This document shows, piece after piece, positions 14,392 through 27,117 of a DNA stretch of 64,000 bases. A model generated the notes under the pieces. The model saw only the letters and a list, made by a program, of their open reading frames with translations. It was not told the DNA's origin and did not search any database. Location of the stretch: the IMG/VR virus record IMGVR_UViG_3300037067_004901, positions 1 to 64,000 of that record, one strand, 5' to 3'. Origin of the DNA: a virus. Its lineage: Duplodnaviria; Caudoviricetes. Position 1 is the first letter of the stretch. Each line of letters opens with the position of its first letter. The position numbers and the translations under genes are program-made.

Positions 14392-15657
14392 TTAATCTCC
14401 TTTAATAACTGCGAGTGGCTGAAGTTCTGTAATAATTTCTACCAAATCTGATTGATTATTCATAACATCTGTTATATCTCTATATGCACCACTTGCTTCA
14501 TCTAAATTATTTATAGAACGAAGACCATGTACAATACCTTGTGCATCTAATTTATTTTGTTCATCTATAAGATTTAATACTTTGCGTGCTTTGCTTCTAC
14601 TCATTATTCTACCTGCACCATGAGAGCAAGAGTTAAAACTTTCAGCATTGCCAAGACCGCGCACTATATATGATTTACGTCCTTGGTCGCCAGGTATAAT
14701 ACCAATCGTATTTTTAGTTGCAAGAGTTGCACCTTTACGATGTATCATAACGTTCTTACCGAAATGATTCTCCATCTTTGCGTAGTTATGCGCTATGTTA
14801 ATCATAGCTTCACTCATATCGGAAGTAATAACTGGAAATTTTTCACTACCAAATATGACAGCAAATATATTTAAAATTTTATTCATCATCAATTTTCTAT
14901 TAGCCAATGCAAAGTCAATGCAATATTGCATTTCTCTTATATATGCTTTACCTTCATCGCTATCTATTGTTAGAAATGCTAATGATTGTTCCATATCTTT
15001 TGGTAAATATGTATTTGAATGCCACTCTTTATTTAGTTCATATGCTACTTTATTATAATGTTTCGCTACTGTATAACCTATATTACGACTGCCTGAATGA
15101 ATCATAATCCAAACATTATCGTATTTATCTTTCTGTATCTCTATAAAATGATTGCCACCGCCAAGAGTTCCAAGTTGACGCAACGCAGATTGATATTCTT
15201 GATACACTATTGGATACATACACTGAAAATCAAATGGTTTACTTTCTGCGCAACTTCTTTCAGGCATTAACTTTTCATCTTGCGCATCTTTATTATGTTC
15301 CTTACCAACTGGTATTGTTTCTCGTATCTTACCCATTATAGTCTTGATTATTTCTTCGCTCAAATCTTTTGCTTTAAGAGAAGTCTTAACAGCACACATA
15401 CCACAACCAATATCAACACCAACTGCATTTGGAACTATCACTCTATCTGTTGCGAGAACAGCACCAATCGGCATACCATATCCACTATGACAATCTGGCA
15501 TTATCGCTATATGATGAAACGCGAAAGGTAAACAAGATAAATTCATTATTTGATTTTTTGCTTCATCTTCTATTTTATCCCAGTCTAACCAAAGTTTCAC
15601 TGGAACTTTTACAGCTTTACTATCTTTACTTATCCCTGTCACATCAATAACTTTCAT
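14392..15657 (-). CDS. rtcB: RNA ligase RtcB
   Basis: MPDCHSGYG, VGVDIGCG, GTLGGGNHFIE, HSGSR, HNY, HRKGA, SHGAGR. Confidence 0.95.
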   Translation of the reverse strand: MKVIDVTGISKDSKAVKVPVKLWLDWDKIEDEAKNQIMNLSCLPFAFHHIAIMPDCHSGYGMPIGAVLATDRVIVPNAVGVDIGCGMCAVKTSLKAKDLSEEIIKTIMGKIRETIPVGKEHNKDAQDEKLMPERSCAESKPFDFQCMYPIVYQEYQSALRQLGTLGGGNHFIEIQKDKYDNVWIMIHSGSRNIGYTVAKHYNKVAYELNKEWHSNTYLPKDMEQSLAFLTIDSDEGKAYIREMQYCIDFALANRKLMMNKILNIFAVIFGSEKFPVITSDMSEAMINIAHNYAKMENHFGKNVMIHRKGATLATKNTIGIIPGDQGRKSYIVRGLGNAESFNSCSHGAGRIMSRSKARKVLNLIDEQNKLDAQGIVHGLRSINNLDEASGAYRDITDVMNNQSDLVEIITELQPLAVIKGD

Positions 15658-15755: not shown

Positions 15756-15971
15756 TCAAAAGCTACCGCCGCTAACAGCACCGATAACAGTAATGATGTC
15801 ACCGGCATGAAGCACAGCGGTTTTGCTGACGACTACTCCATTCACTCTGATAGAAGCACTATATTTCATGTCCTTCTTTTCGAGAAATGAAGCCAGCGTC
15901 GTTCCCTCTGCACACGTCATAGGCTTTAACGGCTTTGCAAGCTCCGCAACCTTAACTGTAATGTTTGCCAT
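15756..15971 (-). CDS. ubiquitin-like (ThiS/MoaD beta-grasp) protein ending in GG-SF
   Basis: IRVNG...LHAGDIITVIGAVSGGSF. Confidence 0.8.
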   Translation of the reverse strand: MANITVKVAELAKPLKPMTCAEGTTLASFLEKKDMKYSASIRVNGVVVSKTAVLHAGDIITVIGAVSGGSF

Positions 15972-15973
15972 TT

Positions 15974-16684
15974 TTATTCACCCCCCTTCATTTGTTTATT
16001 TTTATCTGGTACAACAAATAATTTTAGTATAGATTTCTTTTTATCTCCAACTTCTTCAAGTTTCATTACTTCATCTGCTCCAGAAAAAGATAATAGAATA
16101 GCTTCTGTGTTTAAGTGTCTTAATTGTGAAATAATTGAACCACGTTCATCTTGACCTACATAAAAATTACCAGTGCGCGCTATCCCGCATGGAATTAAAT
16201 CTTCTTTATATATCTCTATCATAGCTTTACTTAAAAATTCTGCTGGTATACTTGGCATCGCATAACAACCACCATTACTTTTCATTGGTATTGCTCTGCA
16301 TATTAAATAATTTTTATCTCTACCCAACATAAATGATTTAGCATAGTGAAAACATTTAACAGAAGAATCAAAAAGTTTATTATAAATATTTTCTTCTATG
16401 AGATATTGATGTTTATTTCCTATTTTCTTTTTTGAAAGTTTTATCTTAACACGATTATCTTTATTAAAAAATTTTATTCTGCTTACACTGTAAGAATCTC
16501 TTGCATATGCTGAACCATCTCCTATCGACCACGAATACTTGAATCCTAATCTATCATGACATGATGCTCCATTTCTAATGTTTTGACATATATAAAATTG
16601 CCCATTTTCTACTTGAATTTTTGCATGACGTATTCTATCTTTACCAATAAAACAACTAATCTCCATATTTTTTCGTAGTTTCAT
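15974..16684 (-). CDS. hypothetical protein with possible inactive MPN/JAB-like C-domain
   Basis: Lies between E1 and Ubl; C-domain similar to 29518..30219. Confidence 0.55.
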   Translation of the reverse strand: MKLRKNMEISCFIGKDRIRHAKIQVENGQFYICQNIRNGASCHDRLGFKYSWSIGDGSAYARDSYSVSRIKFFNKDNRVKIKLSKKKIGNKHQYLIEENIYNKLFDSSVKCFHYAKSFMLGRDKNYLICRAIPMKSNGGCYAMPSIPAEFLSKAMIEIYKEDLIPCGIARTGNFYVGQDERGSIISQLRHLNTEAILLSFSGADEVMKLEEVGDKKKSILKLFVVPDKNKQMKGGE

Positions 16685-16696
16685 ATTTTAATATCC

Positions 16697-17356
16697 TTAA
16701 TCTCTTATCATAAACGATGCTTTGTTTATATTCTGCATATTAAAAACTATCTCTCTCGGATATTCTTCTTTAGATATTACACTTCTATATGAACGACATA
16801 TTAAAGAGGATAACATCAATACGTTATCAATGATAGCCCGCTCACTACAACGAAGCGGCGCTACGTCTTCATCTTTATATAAAGTTTTTTCATAAAATTT
16901 TATATTCTCTTTACTCTTGTCTCGTATTGTATAGACAACACCAAGTTGAGCACCCATTCTTGCTTCAATATAATTTTTGCATTGTTTCTGTTTCAAAAAT
17001 TGTTCCCACACTAAACATCTCGAACTCATTGAATCGGTTGTTACAATTACAGTTTCATGTAGTGGTTGATTCGTATAAAACATTGGCATAATCAACGTAT
17101 TATAACCTGTAAAATCTTGTATGATTTCGTTGAGTGCATCTACCTTAAACTGTTCTACATCTTTTATTCGGTAGAATTGATTTGGTAAATTATGCTCTGT
17201 TACGCCATCTTCATCATAGACTTCTATCATCATTGCGCCCATCTTGGAAAGCGTCAAAGCTGAAAAACTACCGATAGCACCAGCACCAATTAGCGTTATC
17301 TTCTTACTTTGTAACTTCTTCATGTTAATCATAGAAGATTGTCGAAGAAAGTCCAT
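16697..17356 (-). CDS. ThiF/E1-like activating enzyme
   Basis: IGAGAIGS, DEDGVTEHNLPNQ, TDS...R; putative catalytic Cys in PLRC. Confidence 0.88.
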   Translation of the reverse strand: MDFLRQSSMINMKKLQSKKITLIGAGAIGSFSALTLSKMGAMMIEVYDEDGVTEHNLPNQFYRIKDVEQFKVDALNEIIQDFTGYNTLIMPMFYTNQPLHETVIVTTDSMSSRCLVWEQFLKQKQCKNYIEARMGAQLGVVYTIRDKSKENIKFYEKTLYKDEDVAPLRCSERAIIDNVLMLSSLICRSYRSVISKEEYPREIVFNMQNINKASFMIRD

Positions 17357-18056
17357 ATTTTTTCTCCATTTCTTTTGCTGTTAAAACTTCACCATTAACA
17401 ACTATCGCATCATTCTCTACTGGAAATATTATACGATGAGAAGGATAAAGCGTTTTCTCATTCATTATGTTTACAATTTCATATTCTGGTTCTACTATTT
17501 TTACCTTTCGTTCAACTTCTTTTTTGCACGTTTCTCGTAAATCTATATAACCTGTAGGTAATATTGCGATAGATAATTCTTGTGTGTTACCATTTTCATC
17601 GACACGTGCTATCATATCGCCATCTTTATTAATACAGATAGAAAATAAAACAGTATCTTTCGAAAGATGTTTTATACAATCTTCATCAACAGAAGACCAG
17701 CCGACAGAAAAATCATTATGAGAATGCCACCATAATTTCCAGTTTTGCGGGTCTTCATTTTTCTTAACTAAATCAACTACGAATTTTGCAAGCATATCCT
17801 CATTTAATTCTGTATATGCACTTGAACACTCTTGCTCAAATATCAATGCTCTTGTTACTATCGCTATCTCATCATTTATTATCTTTATTTTACCAAGTCC
17901 AGAAATCTCACCCTTCGCGGCTCTCGTATAATAATACATTTTTAAATATGGTATTAAACTGATTTTTAATTTCATATCATAAAGTCCCCAATCTTTATTT
18001 TTGCGTATTTTTCTTGTACGATGTAAGCGTAACTTTGTTAAGTCTTTTACTTTCAT
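17325..18056 (-). CDS. JAB/MPN+ metallopeptidase
   Basis: EISGLG and WWHSHNDFSVGWSSVD (HxH-x7-S-x2-D); start may be at 17975. Confidence 0.85.
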   Translation of the reverse strand: MKVKDLTKLRLHRTRKIRKNKDWGLYDMKLKISLIPYLKMYYYTRAAKGEISGLGKIKIINDEIAIVTRALIFEQECSSAYTELNEDMLAKFVVDLVKKNEDPQNWKLWWHSHNDFSVGWSSVDEDCIKHLSKDTVLFSICINKDGDMIARVDENGNTQELSIAILPTGYIDLRETCKKEVERKVKIVEPEYEIVNIMNEKTLYPSHRIIFPVENDAIVVNGEVLTAKEMEKKYGLSSTIFYD

Positions 18057-19132
18057 ACAACTTTCTCCAATCTTTCGTTTACACGATATGGTCTACCAAC
18101 TTTATGTATATTTTTACCATCTACTTCTACTATATCGCCTGTCGCTACTCTTGAAGTAAATACTTGTCCAACTCCAAGCATATCGAAAAGTTTTATATTT
18201 AATTCTTTTTCTGCCTGCACAAATGCTTTTGTTTTATCAGCGTTTGCAAAACCAGATGATAATACTATTTTCACATCTTCGCAATCAATATCATTCAAAA
18301 GTTTTCTTAAAAGATATGCACCTTTTAAAGAAACACCTTTTGAATTAGATGATGTTGGTAAAACACCTTGCATATAGTTTTCGCCACAAGTATCGATTCT
18401 AACTCCAAATAAATCTTCATCTAATTCAGCGATTACTCTAAAGGTATCTATTATTTCTTGATTCGCATAATCAATTAAAGCTATGCGTGGAACATCTTTA
18501 TCTATATGTTTATTAAATGCTTTCGTAGCCTCTACAACTGCATTTTCTATACCATATTTATAATGATAAATTGCTTCAAGTGCGTGTGGTATCGTTCCTA
18601 CACTATAAGAACCTACACTTGACGCACCAATACCAGTAGAGCAAGACTTCGCACCTGCTTCAAAGCACGCTTTAGATATTTCGAAATCTCTATCATATCG
18701 CCAATGTCTTGCGCCCATGTATATAACTGCTCTATTACCAACAAGTTCCACTATTTTAGCCATATTTGCAGATACTTCTTTTAAATTAATATCTTGCTTA
18801 TCATTCTGTAATGTAGTTTCTGCGCTTATAACACCAAGATACATAGTTTCTAAATCTATAATATCTTGTACCGGTGCTTTGATTGTCATTATCGTTTCGC
18901 AATTCTCGATAAATAAACCTTCTTTTAACGCCCATATTTCTGCGCTTGGGGCATATTTCTGTATTATTGCGATAGCTTCATCAACGCCATAAACATAACA
19001 TAGACCTTTTCTAATAAAAACCTGCAACATTACTTTTGGGTTTAAATTTTCTTTTTGAAGTATCTCTTTACTTCTCAAAAAATATTTATCTATGTATGGT
19101 CTATAATCATCTGGTAAATTAAAGTTTTTCAT
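18053..19132 (-). CDS. pncB: nicotinate phosphoribosyltransferase-like (type II PRTase)
   Basis: DKYF, ETMYLG, MGARH, GTIPHA, LIDY, GVRIDT, VLSSGF, GVG, KVGR. Confidence 0.82.
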   Translation of the reverse strand: MKNFNLPDDYRPYIDKYFLRSKEILQKENLNPKVMLQVFIRKGLCYVYGVDEAIAIIQKYAPSAEIWALKEGLFIENCETIMTIKAPVQDIIDLETMYLGVISAETTLQNDKQDINLKEVSANMAKIVELVGNRAVIYMGARHWRYDRDFEISKACFEAGAKSCSTGIGASSVGSYSVGTIPHALEAIYHYKYGIENAVVEATKAFNKHIDKDVPRIALIDYANQEIIDTFRVIAELDEDLFGVRIDTCGENYMQGVLPTSSNSKGVSLKGAYLLRKLLNDIDCEDVKIVLSSGFANADKTKAFVQAEKELNIKLFDMLGVGQVFTSRVATGDIVEVDGKNIHKVGRPYRVNERLEKVV

Positions 19133-19486
19133 ATACCAAACCTTTCTACGAAATATTCCATTATTTCATATTGTATTTGAGTATTTAAATCAGCATTGAC
19201 ATTTTGTAATCTTTCGTCTACTAATGAATATATATCGTCTCTAAGAGCTTCAAAAAATTCTTTCGGATTTTTACAAATAGCTAAAATTAAACCAGACCTT
19301 AGTTCTTTTTCTACAACTACTTTTGTCATAGCATCTCCTTAAACTACAAAATCATGCTTTGTTAAACGCTTTTGTCTTACCGATAATATTTTCGTTTCTA
19401 TTTTTTCATACATTTGTCTATCTAAAATTTCTATAAAATCCTTGCTGACTTGTTTATTATATTTTTTGGCTAATTCTTTTAAAGTT

Positions 19487-19765
19487 TTAACTACTAATAT
19501 CTTGGCCATCTATTATCTCCTGTTCAGAATTTTCTTCGTAATCATCATATTCTTGCTGTTCTTTTTTTGTGAAACTACCTTTTAAGAAAAACGGTTCAGA
19601 GCAATCTCCACAATCTAAAAATGCTCTATGCTTTTTGAAATCAACATATATATATAAATTTGCCTCCGGCAAATCTGTAACGTTTACATCAAATATACCA
19701 GCGGCTATCTCACCGCCGATACATTCGAATCCAAAAGATTCGAATAATTTTATTCTATCTTGCAC
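19487..19765 (-). CDS. hypothetical protein
   Basis: ORF with GAGAGG RBS. Confidence 0.5.
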   Translation of the reverse strand: MQDRIKLFESFGFECIGGEIAAGIFDVNVTDLPEANLYIYVDFKKHRAFLDCGDCSEPFFLKGSFTKKEQQEYDDYEENSEQEIIDGQDISS

Positions 19766-19783: not shown

Positions 19784-20437
19784 CTACTTCGTTAAAAACA
19801 TATAATTAGTTATATCGGCTATTACTTCACGATAATATGATTGATTTTCCAAAACACGTTTTATTTGATTACAAATAGTCGATACTAAGAACCCAACTCC
19901 ATATATAATGGCTGAAGCTGTGCAAGTTGTTTGCTCTGAATGCTCATCTGGATAATAATGTTTTTCCCAAAAAGCTTGTTCGCATTTTAAGCGCATATCA
20001 ATAGTATAAACTCTATACTGTTCTGCACTTGCACGAGGGTCTATTACCCAATGCACATCTTTCATAGTTTTACAATATTCAAATATTTCTTTTCTGCATT
20101 TCATCGTATCAACACCGATTACGACTATACCTTTTAATGCTTGTTTTTCATACTTACAATTTTCAAATTTTATTTTTACTCCGCTAAAATCTTCGCATAT
20201 TTTCGACGTTTGCTCTGCTTTATATAAATTTAAATCTTGACGCTTAAAAAGCTGATTGGAAAAATTATGTTCTTCTACAAAGTCAAAATCATAAATCTTG
20301 ATATTGTTGCAACCCATCTTAGTCAAGAAGAAAGCTAAAATACTACCAGTTGCACCAGCCCCAATAATATTTATTTCTGCGTTATGATTTGCTGGTTTAA
20401 ATAAATCTAATTGTCTTAAATGCGTTTGAACTGGCAT
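19784..20437 (-). CDS. ThiF/E1-like activating enzyme
   Basis: IIGAGATGS, DFDFVEEHNFSNQ, GVDTMKCR; putative catalytic Cys in TTCT. Confidence 0.88.
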   Translation of the reverse strand: MPVQTHLRQLDLFKPANHNAEINIIGAGATGSILAFFLTKMGCNNIKIYDFDFVEEHNFSNQLFKRQDLNLYKAEQTSKICEDFSGVKIKFENCKYEKQALKGIVVIGVDTMKCRKEIFEYCKTMKDVHWVIDPRASAEQYRVYTIDMRLKCEQAFWEKHYYPDEHSEQTTCTASAIIYGVGFLVSTICNQIKRVLENQSYYREVIADITNYMFLTK

Positions 20438-20451
20438 TTATAACCTTTCTT

Positions 20452-21573
20452 TTAAGTATTATAAAGTATATGTCTATCTTTTTCTGTAAGTGTTATATCG
20501 TTTGCTTCTTCGTTATTATCAAAATATTTTGGGTCTGCGTATGGCATAAGCCCTGATTTTTCTATTTCATCGATAGTCAATTTTTTATTATCTTTATTAT
20601 AAACGTTATACATTTTTATTTCGCTATCCCACACAAAAGCAAAACCATCTAGCGTAAAATGATTACCAAAAATCTGCAACTGCATTGCGTTTAATTCTTC
20701 GATATCAATTGTAATGTCCGCATTTTTTTTAAATAAATCTGGTGGTACTCTTGCTTCTTCATCTATTTGTGCTTGAGCGTCATTTTTAGAAGCATCTGTC
20801 ATATAACCACGTTCACGATGTTCGTCTCTATAATCGTGAATGTTAGTAAACCCAGTTACTACTCTGCTCTTTTCTTTAAATACCTTTTGTTTAATTTCTT
20901 CTTGGCACGTTTTAAGTAACTGCTCTAACTCATCATTATCTATCATAACTACTTTTACGTTGTCTATTTTAAATTCTATTGGTTGATAGACATTTAATTT
21001 GCACTTAATTTCACCTTTATGATTTATGACTAATGAAATCATATAATCACAAACACTTTCACGACCGGTTTGCTCATCACGATTAGACCAGAACGCTCCC
21101 ATATGAGCGTGTGAATGCCACCAAAATTTAAGTTTACTTGGGTCTTTGCCCTCACTAATTAAACGTTGCATTAAAGCGCATTGGTCGTCAATATCCAATA
21201 CACAGCTTGAGCTTGTTACTGTTTGTTTTAAAAGATATATATCAACTATTCTAAATGTAAATTGACTAATACGCTCGACATAGCCAAGACCGGTTATTTC
21301 ATCATCTAATAATTTACAGTAACTATACATCTTATAATATATGTCTCTCGGAATCTCTATTCTCATCGATGATTCATATTGCATATCTTTTCCATCTGAT
21401 AATATTAAATTCGTTCTCAATTCATCGACATCTATTTTGTCAGATGGTGTTACAGCTTCAAGCGTAGCTTCTGTCTTATTATCTGTTGTAACTGGTATTA
21501 CCCCTACACAATTAACTAATGATTTCTGTGTGTCGTTAGAACTACCTCTAAAGCGTCTGTTCTTTCTTCTCAT
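20452..21573 (-). CDS. JAB/MPN+ metallopeptidase
   Basis: EITGLG and WWHSHAHMGAFWSNRD. Confidence 0.85.
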   Translation of the reverse strand: MRRKNRRFRGSSNDTQKSLVNCVGVIPVTTDNKTEATLEAVTPSDKIDVDELRTNLILSDGKDMQYESSMRIEIPRDIYYKMYSYCKLLDDEITGLGYVERISQFTFRIVDIYLLKQTVTSSSCVLDIDDQCALMQRLISEGKDPSKLKFWWHSHAHMGAFWSNRDEQTGRESVCDYMISLVINHKGEIKCKLNVYQPIEFKIDNVKVVMIDNDELEQLLKTCQEEIKQKVFKEKSRVVTGFTNIHDYRDEHRERGYMTDASKNDAQAQIDEEARVPPDLFKKNADITIDIEELNAMQLQIFGNHFTLDGFAFVWDSEIKMYNVYNKDNKKLTIDEIEKSGLMPYADPKYFDNNEEANDITLTEKDRHILYNT

Positions 21574-22997
21574 AATGAATCAACTCCTACTGTTATATTA
21601 TAGTTACACCCATTATCTTCTGTTTGATACGAACATTCATTGCAATTTATATCTTCCATTAAGTGATGCGTTGATGGACATCGTGCGCATTCGCAACGAT
21701 TTACTGCTCTATCGCATTTTCTACAAATATTCTGTCCGCAAGCGCATTCTTCTAATTCTCTATCGCAATTATCACACCATGCAATACCTTGACCCCAACC
21801 AATTGCAAGCTTTTTATATGGTCTTCCACCGCTCTCATTTACATATGTGCAAAGATATGTATGCAATAAATCAAATAACGGTAAAAACATAAAATTCTTT
21901 ATCATTTCTTGCACTTGTTCTTTAATATTTCCAAGACATGGTGCTTGATTATGAACGTGTGGGTGGTCATATGGGTCATTCTCTATCATATAAGGAGAAG
22001 TTAAGTTTTTCATTGTAACAGTTCCATCTAACTTAACAACTACTTTAAATTCTCCTACTTTAAATGTTTTCTTACGATATGTAATTTCGATAGCATGAGT
22101 ATAACCAGTTATACATTGTCCGTCTGGAGCAAAATCAAATGTTTTATATTTATTTGCTGTAAGAAGTGGTTCTAACATCTTCGTTACGCATTCTATATCT
22201 GAATCGTGTTTATTTTTATGAAATCTTTTTTCGGTTGATTCTTGCAATGCTACATTCGCTTCAATATCTCGTTCAAGTTTTTGAACCGCCCGATAATGAC
22301 TATAAATTTCTTCTTGTAATTCATCAATTTTTTGCTTTGTCATTCTATGGAAGTTTTGCTTTAATGCCTTAAAGAAAGTCATATATCTATCTAAAACACG
22401 TCTATCAAAACTAAAACGCCTATTAAGCGCACCTCCTTTTTCCATTATTTCATATGCTTTTAATGCGTCAACAAGAAAACTTTTGCGCATAAATTCATCA
22501 TTTAGCTGAGATGGTTCACTGATTAAATCGGTACAAAATACAATTTCATCCTGCATAGCAAATGCTATAAATACCTCTTGATTTTTAGACGATAAATATA
22601 ATGCTTGCATTGGAGAATGAGACATAAAACAACTTATTGTTACATCTTTTACAAAACGTAATATGATTTCTCCGATTGAAGAAGAATTAGATTTCTTTGT
22701 ATATTCATCTAATATTGTAAGATTATAACAATCGCTATTATTGAATGTTCCTAAATTAATTGGAACATAAATCATTAATTTATTTTTTGATACTTTAGCA
22801 GGATTCAAGTAGAAATCTCTATTTAATCCTACAACTTCAATTTTTTTCTTTAATTTTTTAGCATATTTTTCTAATATCGGAATTATTTCTTTCACTACTG
22901 ATATATTAGTAAAAGAAACGATGCTATCGTTTTTTTCTTTGTTATCTGTTTTTTCTATCGCTATTGCACTTGTTTCTCTTCCAACTTCGATAGCCAT
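21570..22997 (-). CDS. prokaryotic E2-like protein with coiled coil and Cys-rich tail
   Basis: HPHVHNQAPCLGN resembles the E2 HPN..ICL signature; located between Ubl and JAB/E1. Confidence 0.7.
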   Translation of the reverse strand: MAIEVGRETSAIAIEKTDNKEKNDSIVSFTNISVVKEIIPILEKYAKKLKKKIEVVGLNRDFYLNPAKVSKNKLMIYVPINLGTFNNSDCYNLTILDEYTKKSNSSSIGEIILRFVKDVTISCFMSHSPMQALYLSSKNQEVFIAFAMQDEIVFCTDLISEPSQLNDEFMRKSFLVDALKAYEIMEKGGALNRRFSFDRRVLDRYMTFFKALKQNFHRMTKQKIDELQEEIYSHYRAVQKLERDIEANVALQESTEKRFHKNKHDSDIECVTKMLEPLLTANKYKTFDFAPDGQCITGYTHAIEITYRKKTFKVGEFKVVVKLDGTVTMKNLTSPYMIENDPYDHPHVHNQAPCLGNIKEQVQEMIKNFMFLPLFDLLHTYLCTYVNESGGRPYKKLAIGWGQGIAWCDNCDRELEECACGQNICRKCDRAVNRCECARCPSTHHLMEDINCNECSYQTEDNGCNYNITVGVDSL

Positions 22998-23025
22998 AAA
23001 ATCTCCTATTTTAATATATAAAGAA

Positions 23026-23061
23026 AATATAGGACGAGCAGAGCTAAACTCGTCCTATATT
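23026..23061 (-). promoter_or_regulatory. 13-bp perfect hairpin downstream of the Ubl gene
   Basis: AATATAGGACGAG / CTCGTCCTATATT. Confidence 0.65.
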
Positions 23062-23089
23062 GAAGAATTATTAGAACTTTACTTTTTTG

Positions 23090-23296
23090 TTAATTCCCTT
23101 TTACTTGCGGAATAACGAAAATTGTATCGTTCGGATCAAGCGTATCTTCAAGTTCCGCTACTTCATTGTTAACCCTTATTTCTTTCGCAACATCAATACG
23201 TGCTCCCGCTTTACGAAGCGCGGTTTCGATTGTCGCGTTTTCTGAAACTTCTACATCTGCCATTATTCCGCCTTGCTCTACAACTCTTACTTTCAT
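23090..23296 (-). CDS. ubiquitin-like beta-grasp protein ending in KG-N
   Basis: IRVNNE...LDPNDTIFVIPQVKGN; first gene of the Ubl-E2-JAB-E1 operon. Confidence 0.8.
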   Translation of the reverse strand: MKVRVVEQGGIMADVEVSENATIETALRKAGARIDVAKEIRVNNEVAELEDTLDPNDTIFVIPQVKGN

Positions 23297-23504
23297 TTTT
23301 GTCTCCTTTCGACAAATTGTATGTTTAGTTTTATCTTTATATCATATAGACGGTTTTTTTTATTTATCGCCTCGCTTTCTTTCTATACAATACGCAGACA
23401 GGAAACTAAACTTTATAACCTGTCACGCTTTCTACAAATAAATTCGCTACTCATAACCGATAATGAGTAGCATATAGACATATTTCTTCTACTGTATTTT
23501 GTCA

Positions 23505-23533
23505 AGTATATCATAAATTAAATGAAAAGTCAA
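23505..23533 (-). promoter_or_regulatory. sigma70 promoter of the Ubl operon
   Basis: TTGACT-17-TATACT with extended TG. Confidence 0.7.
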
Positions 23534-23546
23534 TAACTCTGTTACC

Positions 23547-23798
23547 CTAAACGACAGCTTGAATTTTGTTATGTTTCTCTGCTTCAATAAATCGTTTTAT
23601 GTGTTTACATTTACGTTGTGTCGCAACAAAAATCGGGCAACTACATACATATCTATAATGCTTTTTATCCCTTTTTCTTATCTTTGCTACCATATACTCT
23701 GTATCTTCTTTTGTTTCTGATGGAATCAGTGCATACTTTCTTGCACCAAAACGATTTCTTGCTGACATTGTTTGTTTTACTTTTAGTTTTGCTGACAT
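23547..23798 (-). CDS. SWIM zinc-finger protein
   Basis: CSCP...CKH. Confidence 0.75.
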   Translation of the reverse strand: MSAKLKVKQTMSARNRFGARKYALIPSETKEDTEYMVAKIRKRDKKHYRYVCSCPIFVATQRKCKHIKRFIEAEKHNKIQAVV

Positions 23799-26550: not shown

Positions 26551-27117
26551 TTATACCTTTCTATTCATACAGCATTTTTTATATTTTTTACCGCTACCAC
26601 ATACGCATAAATCGTTACGACCAACTTTTTCTTGTTTCTTGTGAGCGAAATCAGTTATTAATAGACCATTCATATGCGCTATTTCGTGCTGAATAACTAA
26701 TGCTTCGAGTGCGCTGAAATAAGCTCGCTTTTCTTTCTTCTCGTCGAAGTCAATCCACTTTACCACTATCTCTGCGTATCTATCTGTGTCAACAAGAATA
26801 TCGGGTAAAGACAGACATCCTTCATTTTGCAAAGTCATAAGTGTTTCTTGTTTCTCAATAACTGGATTTATCATATTGAGATTCAGTTCTTTACCATTTT
26901 CATGCTTTAATCTAATAACACACGCTCTTATTGCAAAATCAATTTGTATAGCTGTAAGACCAACACCCGGTCTACCTTTATGTTCACTATCTTTTAAAGC
27001 GTCTTGTAGTCTATCAAATATAGAAATTGTTTGACATTGCTCGATACTCGTTTCTCGTGAAATCTTACGCAACTGCGATATATCTGTTATAATCATATTA
27101 ACCTCATATATAAACAC
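26551..27117 (-). CDS. def: peptide deformylase with C-terminal SEC-C motif
   Basis: GVGLTAIQ, EGCLS, QHEIAH; GRNDLCVCGSGKKYKKCC. Confidence 0.9.
   Translation of the reverse strand: MFIYEVNMIITDISQLRKISRETSIEQCQTISIFDRLQDALKDSEHKGRPGVGLTAIQIDFAIRACVIRLKHENGKELNLNMINPVIEKQETLMTLQNEGCLSLPDILVDTDRYAEIVVKWIDFDEKKEKRAYFSALEALVIQHEIAHMNGLLITDFAHKKQEKVGRNDLCVCGSGKKYKKCCMNRKV

Follow-up and report, generated by a model that had tools for sequence, protein, structure and literature searches.

A probable ubiquitin-like conjugation operon in a tailed phage, with an E2-like protein from a family that matches no searched profile library

The window analysed here comprises the first 64 kb of an IMG/VR virus record of 105,537 bp (IMGVR_UViG_3300037067_004901; estimated completeness ~60%), and its subject is a four-gene operon on the minus strand that is predicted to encode a ubiquitin-like protein (Ubl) together with enzymes for its conjugation. 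The contig was assigned to a tailed phage because its remainder codes for the major head protein and the head maturation protease as well as for a tape-measure protein and a tail fibre. The window DNA has ~31% G+C, and genes up to ~42 kb are all leftward. In the order of transcription, the operon consists of open reading frames (ORFs) for a 68-residue Ubl (23090–23296), a 475-residue E2-like protein (21570–22997), a 373-residue JAB/JAMM peptidase (20452–21573) and a minimal E1 of 217 residues (19784–20437). The genes are tightly packed, with the stop codon of the E2-like gene overlapping the start codon of the JAB gene (ATGA) and 14 nucleotides (nt) between the JAB and E1 genes. The operon is placed in the accessory arm of the phage (nicotinamide adenine dinucleotide (NAD)-salvage genes, RtcB, a tRNA array and a radical-SAM cluster), away from the structural genes. 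An earlier note on this DNA had claimed a complete phage-encoded operon; the four ORFs were present as described, every detail checked was correct, and the E2 fold, Ubl fold, JAMM motif, E1 residues and conserved linkage all held. The reading of these genes as one phage operon of Ubl, E2-like protein, JAB and minimal E1 is supported. Additional to that note are a second Ubl/E1/JAB set, a strong hairpin between the Ubl and E2-like genes, and members of the family in bacterial metagenome-assembled genomes, all described below.

The 475-residue protein was modelled by AlphaFold with an N-terminal alpha/beta domain (residues ~22–195) and a long helix (residues 199–261), followed by a UBC/E2-type catalytic core (residues 262–405; 21783–22214, minus strand) and a Cys-rich tail (residues 407–466; 21600–21779, minus strand) with ~12 conserved Cys in CxxC and CxC pairs. 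Within the core lies an HPH...C...G motif (21930–21965, minus strand; HPHVHNQAPCLGN at residues 345–357), and 13 Cys are found C-terminal to it, so that the E2-like site, coiled coil and Cys-rich tail proposed in the earlier note were all recovered. No family match to the protein was returned by Pfam, PHROGs, PADLOC or NCBIfam, and 51 relatives were likewise all without a Pfam family. A word-based protein search found only the protein itself, and INPHARED phages gave neither a DNA match nor a tblastn match, so that we know of no cultured phage that carries this E2. Relatives were detected by HMMER over 1.84 billion representatives (304 at E ≤0.001, 59 <1e-10), giving a family of at least 304 sequence clusters at 50% identity. 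The region common to the family spans residues ~200–466. Residues H345, P346, H347, C354 and G356 are invariant (146 aligned sequences), and the motif HPH[VI]x5-6C[LFWY]G is present in 146 of the best 150 relatives.

Folding with alignment A2 gave a predicted local distance difference test score (pLDDT) of 85.9 for the 475-residue protein, compared with 35 when no alignment was supplied. In the model the alpha/beta domain spans residues ~27–187, and the order after the long helix is helix, beta-meander, HPH loop, Cys and further helices. The best Foldseek match against the PDB was weak (E 0.024); 49 of the best 50 rows were E2, UFC1 or UEV chains, with UFC1 bound to UBA5 at the top. A profile of the core built from 43 sequences (A5) returned eight PDB matches at E ≤10, of which six were UBE2L3/UbcH7 chains (E 0.08–0.15) and two were of near-identical sequence under another name. 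The alignment to UbcH7 runs from the first helix through the meander and places HPH on HPN and Cys354 on the catalytic Cys86. Both the fold search and the core profile bear on the earlier proposal that 21570–22997 be checked against UBC folds, and they support a predicted UBC/E2-type fold with the HPH and Cys on the E2 catalytic motif. Less was learned from the other comparisons: the whole-length profile (A1) returned coiled-coil noise only from the PDB, coiled-coil matches to helix 196–262 drowned out others when VIA-align was run against the whole PDB, and for residues 22–195 nothing usable came from the ESM Atlas (TM <0.5). Prediction of a complex between E1 (A6) and the E2 core (A5) scored 0.00 and was given no weight either way. 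The protein falls short of Pfam UQ_con and of every Prok-E2 model, and it appears to work like an E2 but outside the curated UQ_con family. The 11 closest relatives (A3) keep the Cys positions of the tail; the tail was classed as accessory because only 21/184 complete family members have at least eight tail Cys. It is probably a zinc-binding module and could possibly serve as a built-in E3-like or target-binding element. Both the N-terminal domain and the tail are variable, which fits a part in target selection.

As a single query the 68-residue Ubl, whose C-terminus is VKGN (...QVKGN), matched ThiS weakly (E 0.011). A profile built from 33 members of the Ubl family (A7) matched Pyrococcus PF1061 (3.6e-13), SAMP2 (2.5e-12), and ThiS and MoaD (5e-6), and identifies the protein as a predicted beta-grasp Ubl of the ThiS/MoaD/SAMP type; with its ...VKGN end, this bears out the beta-grasp Ubl ending in KG-N of the earlier note. 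The JAB was matched by the PADLOC JAB model (1.5e-5), and against the PDB Rpn11/PSMD14 gave the sole matches <1e-3 (best 3e-5). Its JAMM domain occupies residues ~70–200, followed by a C-terminal extension (200–373), and E92, H153, S154, H155, S163 and D166 are conserved in 62 relatives; the HSH..S..D site had been called intact, and it is. The E1 was matched by Pfam ThiF over the cut-off (1.6e-14), in agreement with its description as a minimal ThiF/E1 of 217 residues, and the best matches of its profile (A6) were E. coli ThiF (1.3e-17) and human UBA5 (3.4e-17). It is a single ThiF/MoeB-type adenylation domain without a rhodanese domain, a CxxC zinc site or a separate Cys domain. G26, G28, G31, D50, D52, N58, K73, D110, R115 and C172 are invariant (43–49 relatives), and R8 is nearly so (98% of relatives). 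C172, the only conserved Cys, aligns with the Cys184 region of ThiF.

For the analysis of gene linkage, loci were fetched from IMG/VR, JGI metagenomes and GTDB genomes by a degenerate DNA pattern for DHPH[VI]x5C[LFW]GN. This pattern fits only 60/150 listed family representatives, so that locus counts are those of biased samples. Neighbours were assigned by ORF calling and iterated hidden Markov model (HMM) searches seeded solely with the window proteins. The pattern yielded 5 loci from IMG/VR, at least 120 from JGI metagenomes and 76 from GTDB; a true member of the E2 family was present in 118/120 metagenome loci (among the matches listed) and in 73/76 GTDB loci. The four families recur together in at least ~190 loci on phage, metagenome and metagenome-assembled genome (MAG) contigs that were found through the E2 motif alone. 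Gene orders in the metagenome and GTDB loci were Ubl-E2-JAB-E1 (as in the window), E2-JAB-E1-Ubl, E2-E1-Ubl and E2-JAB. The E1 follows the E2 in 5/5 IMG/VR loci, at E2 identities as low as 27%, and a JAB was found between them by tblastn in 4/5, the HMM pass also scoring locus L003 as JAB-positive. The closest relative, L001 (a 130-kb viral contig), carries all four genes at 55%, 35%, 44% and 50% identity. Because the same families recur in at least ~190 diverged loci, the operon was taken as a genuine recurrent module and not a chance neighbourhood.

The GTDB matches came from ~35 Methylomirabilota (NC10) MAGs, 13 Chloroflexota, candidate phyla radiation (CPR) bacteria, one DPANN archaeon and scattered other phyla. 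Some lie on contigs of 100–300 kb and one on a 4.5-Mb chromosome. In NC10 (e.g., L139, L174, L196 and L197 among the GTDB loci L127–L202) the operon is mostly E2-E1-Ubl, with two copies in some MAGs, and its recurring neighbours are a SurA-type peptidyl-prolyl isomerase (PPIase), DUF2203, NTPase_1, a bifunctional nuclease and an alpha/beta hydrolase. The NC10 operon probably sits in a chromosomal, housekeeping-like setting, neither defence island nor prophage, although MAG binning can misplace viral contigs. These neighbourhoods suggest a cellular, vertically kept version of the system.

The C-terminal end of the Ubl was compared across the family. G67 is invariant in 33/33 aligned Ubls, and the next column holds Gly in 27 and Asn in 6. 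The Gly-Gly column is followed by 0–3 variable residues (R, K, C, Q, S, V, VL, IL, LR, QLV and VSL among them), and Asn-type ends likewise vary beyond the Asn (GN, GNI, GNN, GNR, GNA, GNVFF). The GN end is common to the Ubls of the window, L001 (53% identity) and L003 (18% identity), and GN-type loci are split over two separate E1 clades. In one locus (L013:3-326:+) the Ubl is a head-to-tail poly-Ubl, comparable to polyubiquitin, of identical 69-residue units with ...RIKGN|TTLTVKV... junctions, and its last copy ends exactly in GN. Ubl ORFs of 135–160 residues, possibly of two units each, were seen in several other loci. A glycine-rich loop GxGATG is present in the five GN-type E1s censused (window, L001, L003, L081, L090), where the family mostly has GxGGIG, and the alignment of the L177 E1 likewise shows A-T at these positions; GxGATG also occurs in four GG-type E1s. 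A tie between this loop and Asn-ended Ubls is suggestive only. No significant association was found between extra residues after GG/GN and the presence of a JAB (Fisher p 0.43); all nine Ubls with 2–3 extra residues are in JAB-containing loci. The earlier note cited, for Bil and Bub operons, trimming by a JAB that exposes a C-terminal Gly. Simple trimming of this kind was not established here, because the terminal Asn sits, conserved, in the column of the second Gly of the family Gly-Gly end and the true caps after it vary. On the simplest reading, an Asn stands in for the second Gly and possibly forms the mature C-terminus of the Ubl.

A promoter-like site (TTGACT, 17 nt, TATACT, extended TG; 23505–23533, minus strand) lies ~210 nt upstream of the Ubl start. 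With 10/12 matches it is the best sigma-70-like site of the region, as the promoter placed before the operon in the earlier note would have it; such sites are no more frequent in the region than in shuffles, and for this reason it is treated as a candidate only. Just upstream of it, an 83-residue ORF (23547–23798, minus strand) gave a weak SWIM zinc-finger match (E 0.029), and L090 has a homologue of this ORF ~3 kb away from its operon. The 5' leader, which runs from the promoter-like site to the Ubl gene, contains a hairpin with a 10-bp stem (23445–23472, minus strand; -16.3 kcal/mol, z -4.4). A 14-bp hairpin with a T-rich tail lies between the Ubl and E2-like genes (23026–23061, minus strand; -20.6 kcal/mol, z -7.5; 0/200 shuffles as good). 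Strong hairpins, often followed by a T run, were found in 25/31 distinct Ubl-to-E2 spacers of other loci (including L001, L013, L037, L043, L055, L056, L087, L090, L095, L097, L110, L153 and L170), and their sequences are unrelated. The Ubl-E2 hairpin is likely a conserved device by which more tag than enzyme would be made, acting as a partial terminator or a stabilised 3' end.

A second Ubl/E1/JAB set is located directly downstream of the operon (15756–19132, minus strand). Its genes, all on the minus strand, encode a nicotinate-phosphoribosyltransferase-like protein (18053–19132; NCBIfam PRK07188 2e-51, under its cut-off), JAB2 (17325–18056; 27% identical to the first JAB), E1b (16697–17356; 34% identical to the first E1), a 236-residue orphan ending in KGGE (15974–16684) and Ubl2 ending in GGSF (15756–15971; Pfam ThiS 2e-6, over the cut-off, and 2.6e-6 with the profile of the first Ubl). 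RtcB (14392–15657, minus strand) comes after Ubl2. The contig carries one E2 of this family, and the second set (E1b, JAB2, Ubl2) is without an E2 of its own. A search of IMG/VR gave no relatives for either JAB2 or the orphan, and an Atlas search with the orphan was uninformative. Between the first E1 and this set, two small ORFs of 92 and 56 residues (19339–19765, minus strand) are possible accessory genes. Homologues of both directly follow the E1 in L001 (41% and 44% identity) and were not found in the other loci, for which reason the tie of these ORFs to the operon is weak. Upstream of the operon, a 188-residue ORF (26551–27117, minus strand) has, as read by eye, a HEIAHMNG motif with a peptide deformylase-like look and a Cys-rich, SEC-C-like C-terminal tail (CVCGSGKKYKKCC).

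The four proteins were compared with known systems. Known conjugating families comprise Type II CBASS and both types (I and II) of Bil and of Bub (PMC11601603). Like Bil (BilABCD; PMC10557695, 10.1101/2023.09.04.556158), the operon has four separate genes for Ubl, E2, JAB and E1, a catalytic Cys in the predicted E2 with a likely E1-to-E2 thioester relay, and a Ubl with a conserved near-terminal Gly followed by a short tail, E. aridi BilA having a one-residue cap that its JAB removes. The Bil E1 combines an inactive with an active adenylation domain and adds a mobile Cys domain and a zinc site (PMC10557695), in contrast to the E1 here, a single 217-residue domain without these. BilB has a His after the Cys (CEHH), whereas here the invariant His of HPH precede the Cys by 7–9 residues, in the manner of eukaryotic E2s, and none is invariant after it. 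Two further differences are that conservation extends here to the residue after that Gly, which is Gly or Asn, and that the owner is a phage. No Bil chain was among the PDB matches of profile A5 or the fold-search rows listed, and a relationship may still exist. Bub systems (formerly 6E/DUF6527; Ye et al., PMC11601596) form Ser oxyesters with an E1 that lacks a catalytic Cys and have Ubl-E2 and peptidase-E1 fusions; here the genes are separate, and Cys354 of the E2-like protein and Cys172 of the E1 are invariant. BubCD was a distant match of the E1 profile (4.9e-10), in the nucleotide-binding part only. In Type II CBASS (Cap2/Cap3), an E2-E1 fusion acts on a CD-NTase; the E2 and E1 are separate here, and no SMODS/CD-NTase match was found on the contig, ~60% complete as it is. 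The likeness to Bub and CBASS is that of bacterial systems in which an E1, an E2 and a peptidase serve to conjugate a protein C-terminus. The earlier parallel with Bil and Bub is sound as an analogy; as far as these comparisons go, the module is not Bil, Bub or CBASS.

The archaeal SAMP/UbaA/JAMM system is similar in that PF1061/SAMP2 are nearest to the Ubl and in its small ThiF/MoeB-type E1 with a JAMM peptidase partner. That system has no E2; here the gene kept most constantly in the operon encodes a predicted E2-fold protein, and the catalytic motif of this protein is invariant. With eukaryotic UBC E2s (UbcH7/UBE2L3, Ubc13, E2-25K) the predicted core shares the order of helix, beta-meander, HPx loop, Cys and helices; it differs from them in having HPH for HPN and in its large additional N-terminal domain, 60-residue helix and Cys-rich tail. 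There is also a likeness to the minimal E1-E2 pair UBA5-UFC1, as UBA5 scores only slightly below ThiF with the E1 profile. By profile and model, the nearest solved relatives of the four parts appear to be UbcH7-type E2s, Rpn11, SAMP2/PF1061 and ThiF/UBA5. All four tested features of the broad prokaryotic Ubl-E1-E2-JAB class (Iyer et al. 2006, classes 6a–6e) were found: a small beta-grasp Ubl with a conserved Gly near its C-terminus (followed by Asn rather than Gly in this subclade), a ThiF E1 without rhodanese, an E2 with Cys and His, and a JAB with an intact JAMM motif beside the E1. In the literature, with most subscription journals outside the coverage, no paper was found on phage-encoded E1/E2/JAB/Ubl operons or on this E2 family.

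Taken together, the window probably holds a phage-borne, working-looking Ubl conjugation module whose E2 family matches no searched profile library, a reading in which we place fairly good confidence. Its observed basis is the fold and family of the four proteins, their conserved catalytic residues and the conserved gene linkage; we infer from there the chemical steps, the order of transfer, the mature end of the Ubl (Gly67 or Asn68), the targets and the benefit to the phage. The operon would be transcribed from the promoter-like site at 23533, and the hairpin after the Ubl gene would leave the tag in excess over the enzymes. The 217-residue E1 would bind the 68-residue Ubl and adenylate its C-terminus with ATP. 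The Ubl would probably be handed to the invariant Cys172 of the E1 and then to Cys354 of the 475-residue protein, in which HPH...C is placed as HPN...C is in eukaryotic E2s. The N-terminal domain, long helix and Cys-rich tail of this protein would choose the target, and an amine of the target would receive the Ubl. The Rpn11-like JAB may mature capped or tandem Ubl precursors, strip the Ubl from targets, or both.

Several observations weigh against this reading. The Ubl ends in Asn, not Gly, and we know of no characterised Ubl conjugation system that uses a C-terminal Asn. Its family appears nearest to proteins that double as sulfur carriers (ThiS, MoaD, SAMP2, TtuB), and Cys172 of the E1 lies at the place of a Cys that serves sulfur chemistry in ThiF. 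In many family loci no JAB or E1 was detectable nearby, the contig is only ~60% complete, and the housekeeping-like chromosomal settings in NC10 mean that a phage-specific role cannot be assumed. The main mechanistic rival is a sulfur carrier, in which the E1 would thiocarboxylate the Ubl (as for ThiS, MoaD, TtuB and SAMP2) for tRNA thiolation or cofactors and the 475-residue protein would be a scaffold or relay. This would agree with the presence of those four proteins among the best matches of the Ubl profile and with ThiF as the best match of the E1, its invariant Cys on the Cys184 region; a tRNA-thiolation role would fit the tRNA array and RtcB of the phage, and archaeal SAMPs serve both conjugation and sulfur transfer. 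However, neither a rhodanese nor a TtuA-type PP-loop enzyme was found on the 105-kb contig (the only PP-loop match being a NadE-like gene, below the cut-off), and the E1 has no rhodanese domain. ThiG, MoaE and cysteine desulfurase were absent from the neighbouring ORFs scanned, a scan that was not a direct search for them, and host enzymes could serve. Sulfur carriers need no E2-fold protein, yet one with invariant His and Cys is linked to the E1 and Ubl in at least ~190 loci. An Rpn11-like peptidase with an intact active site is linked as well. Because the E2 and the peptidase are constant partners and no sulfur-transfer gene was found on the contig, a sulfur carrier was rated improbable. Still more doubtful is that the 475-residue protein is a non-catalytic, UEV/RWD-like adaptor and that conjugation, if any, is E2-independent, as in the archaeal SAMP/UbaA system. 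The match to E2s is weak by any single measure, archaea conjugate without an E2, and the second set in the window (E1b, JAB2, Ubl2) has no E2 gene of its own; against this, neither the Cys nor either His of the motif varies across 146 diverse sequences, and the inactive E2-fold domains of Iyer et al. are without the Cys (PMC1779556).

Within a conjugation mechanism, the Ubl could be activated at Asn68 rather than Gly67, and the Asn side chain might then close into a succinimide, as happens when MccB makes microcin C. A different activated intermediate or linkage would result; the JAB would then only remove residues after the Asn or cut tandem repeats after it. MccB, an E1 relative that adenylates a C-terminal Asn and drives succinimide formation, is among the PDB matches of the E1 profile (A6, 5e-14). 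Also in favour of activation at Asn68, Asn occupies the second-Gly column (27 Gly, 6 Asn) with variable residues after GN as after GG, the GN end is kept in Ubls as far apart as those of the window, L001 (53%) and L003 (18%) and at loci in two E1 clades, and the final copy of the L013 poly-Ubl, with its ...KGN|TTL... junctions, ends in GN. The GN-type sequences number only ~12, however, from two independent origins, and the GxGATG loop of their E1s is also found with four GG-type Ubls. Removal of a one-residue cap by a JAB is, moreover, proven for Type II BilA (Gly97-Ala98, the Ala being cut off; PMC10557695). As a matter of general background, a single Asn caps yeast Rub1 and the last ubiquitin of UBI4. 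On balance, activation at Asn68 is considered rather unlikely. The conjugation module proposed above would serve to modify host or phage proteins during infection, which is a guess, and takeover, virion assembly and defence or counter-defence were not ranked against each other as its benefit to the phage. The roles suggested in the earlier note, in which host or competing-phage proteins are tagged or host Ubl defence is countered, are likewise guesses. One such role is that of a defence or exclusion cassette, in which Bil-like tagging of the structural proteins of competing phages would shield the infected cell on behalf of the phage that carries the cassette. Links to immunity are known for Bil, Bub and CBASS alike (PMC11601603), and the module shares the accessory arm of the phage with genes for NAD salvage and others of conflict type. 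On the other hand, neither the E2 nor the Ubl was matched by a PADLOC defence model, and the Methylomirabilota operon has housekeeping-like neighbours (SurA-type PPIase, DUF2203, NTPase) in place of defence islands. A defence role is possible, if on the unlikely side; it bears on role only and is compatible with the proposed conjugation mechanism.

To date, three prokaryotic operon families (CBASS Cap2/3, Bil and Bub) are established as conjugating proteins in the manner of ubiquitin, and each was investigated as a bacterial defence against phages. The operon appears to represent a further conjugation family, present in tailed phages and uncultured bacteria, with parts that look closer to the archaeal and eukaryotic versions. 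Its Gly-Asn end poses a directly testable question of what an E1 can activate; were Asn68 indeed adenylated, which we think unlikely, a bacterial virus would hold a linkage or chemistry unseen in any ubiquitin-like system. If the module is active, bacterial viruses would wield their own protein-tagging machinery, and the four genes would offer a compact system for biochemistry and a data point on the origin of the E1-E2 cascade from ThiF/ThiS-type ancestors.

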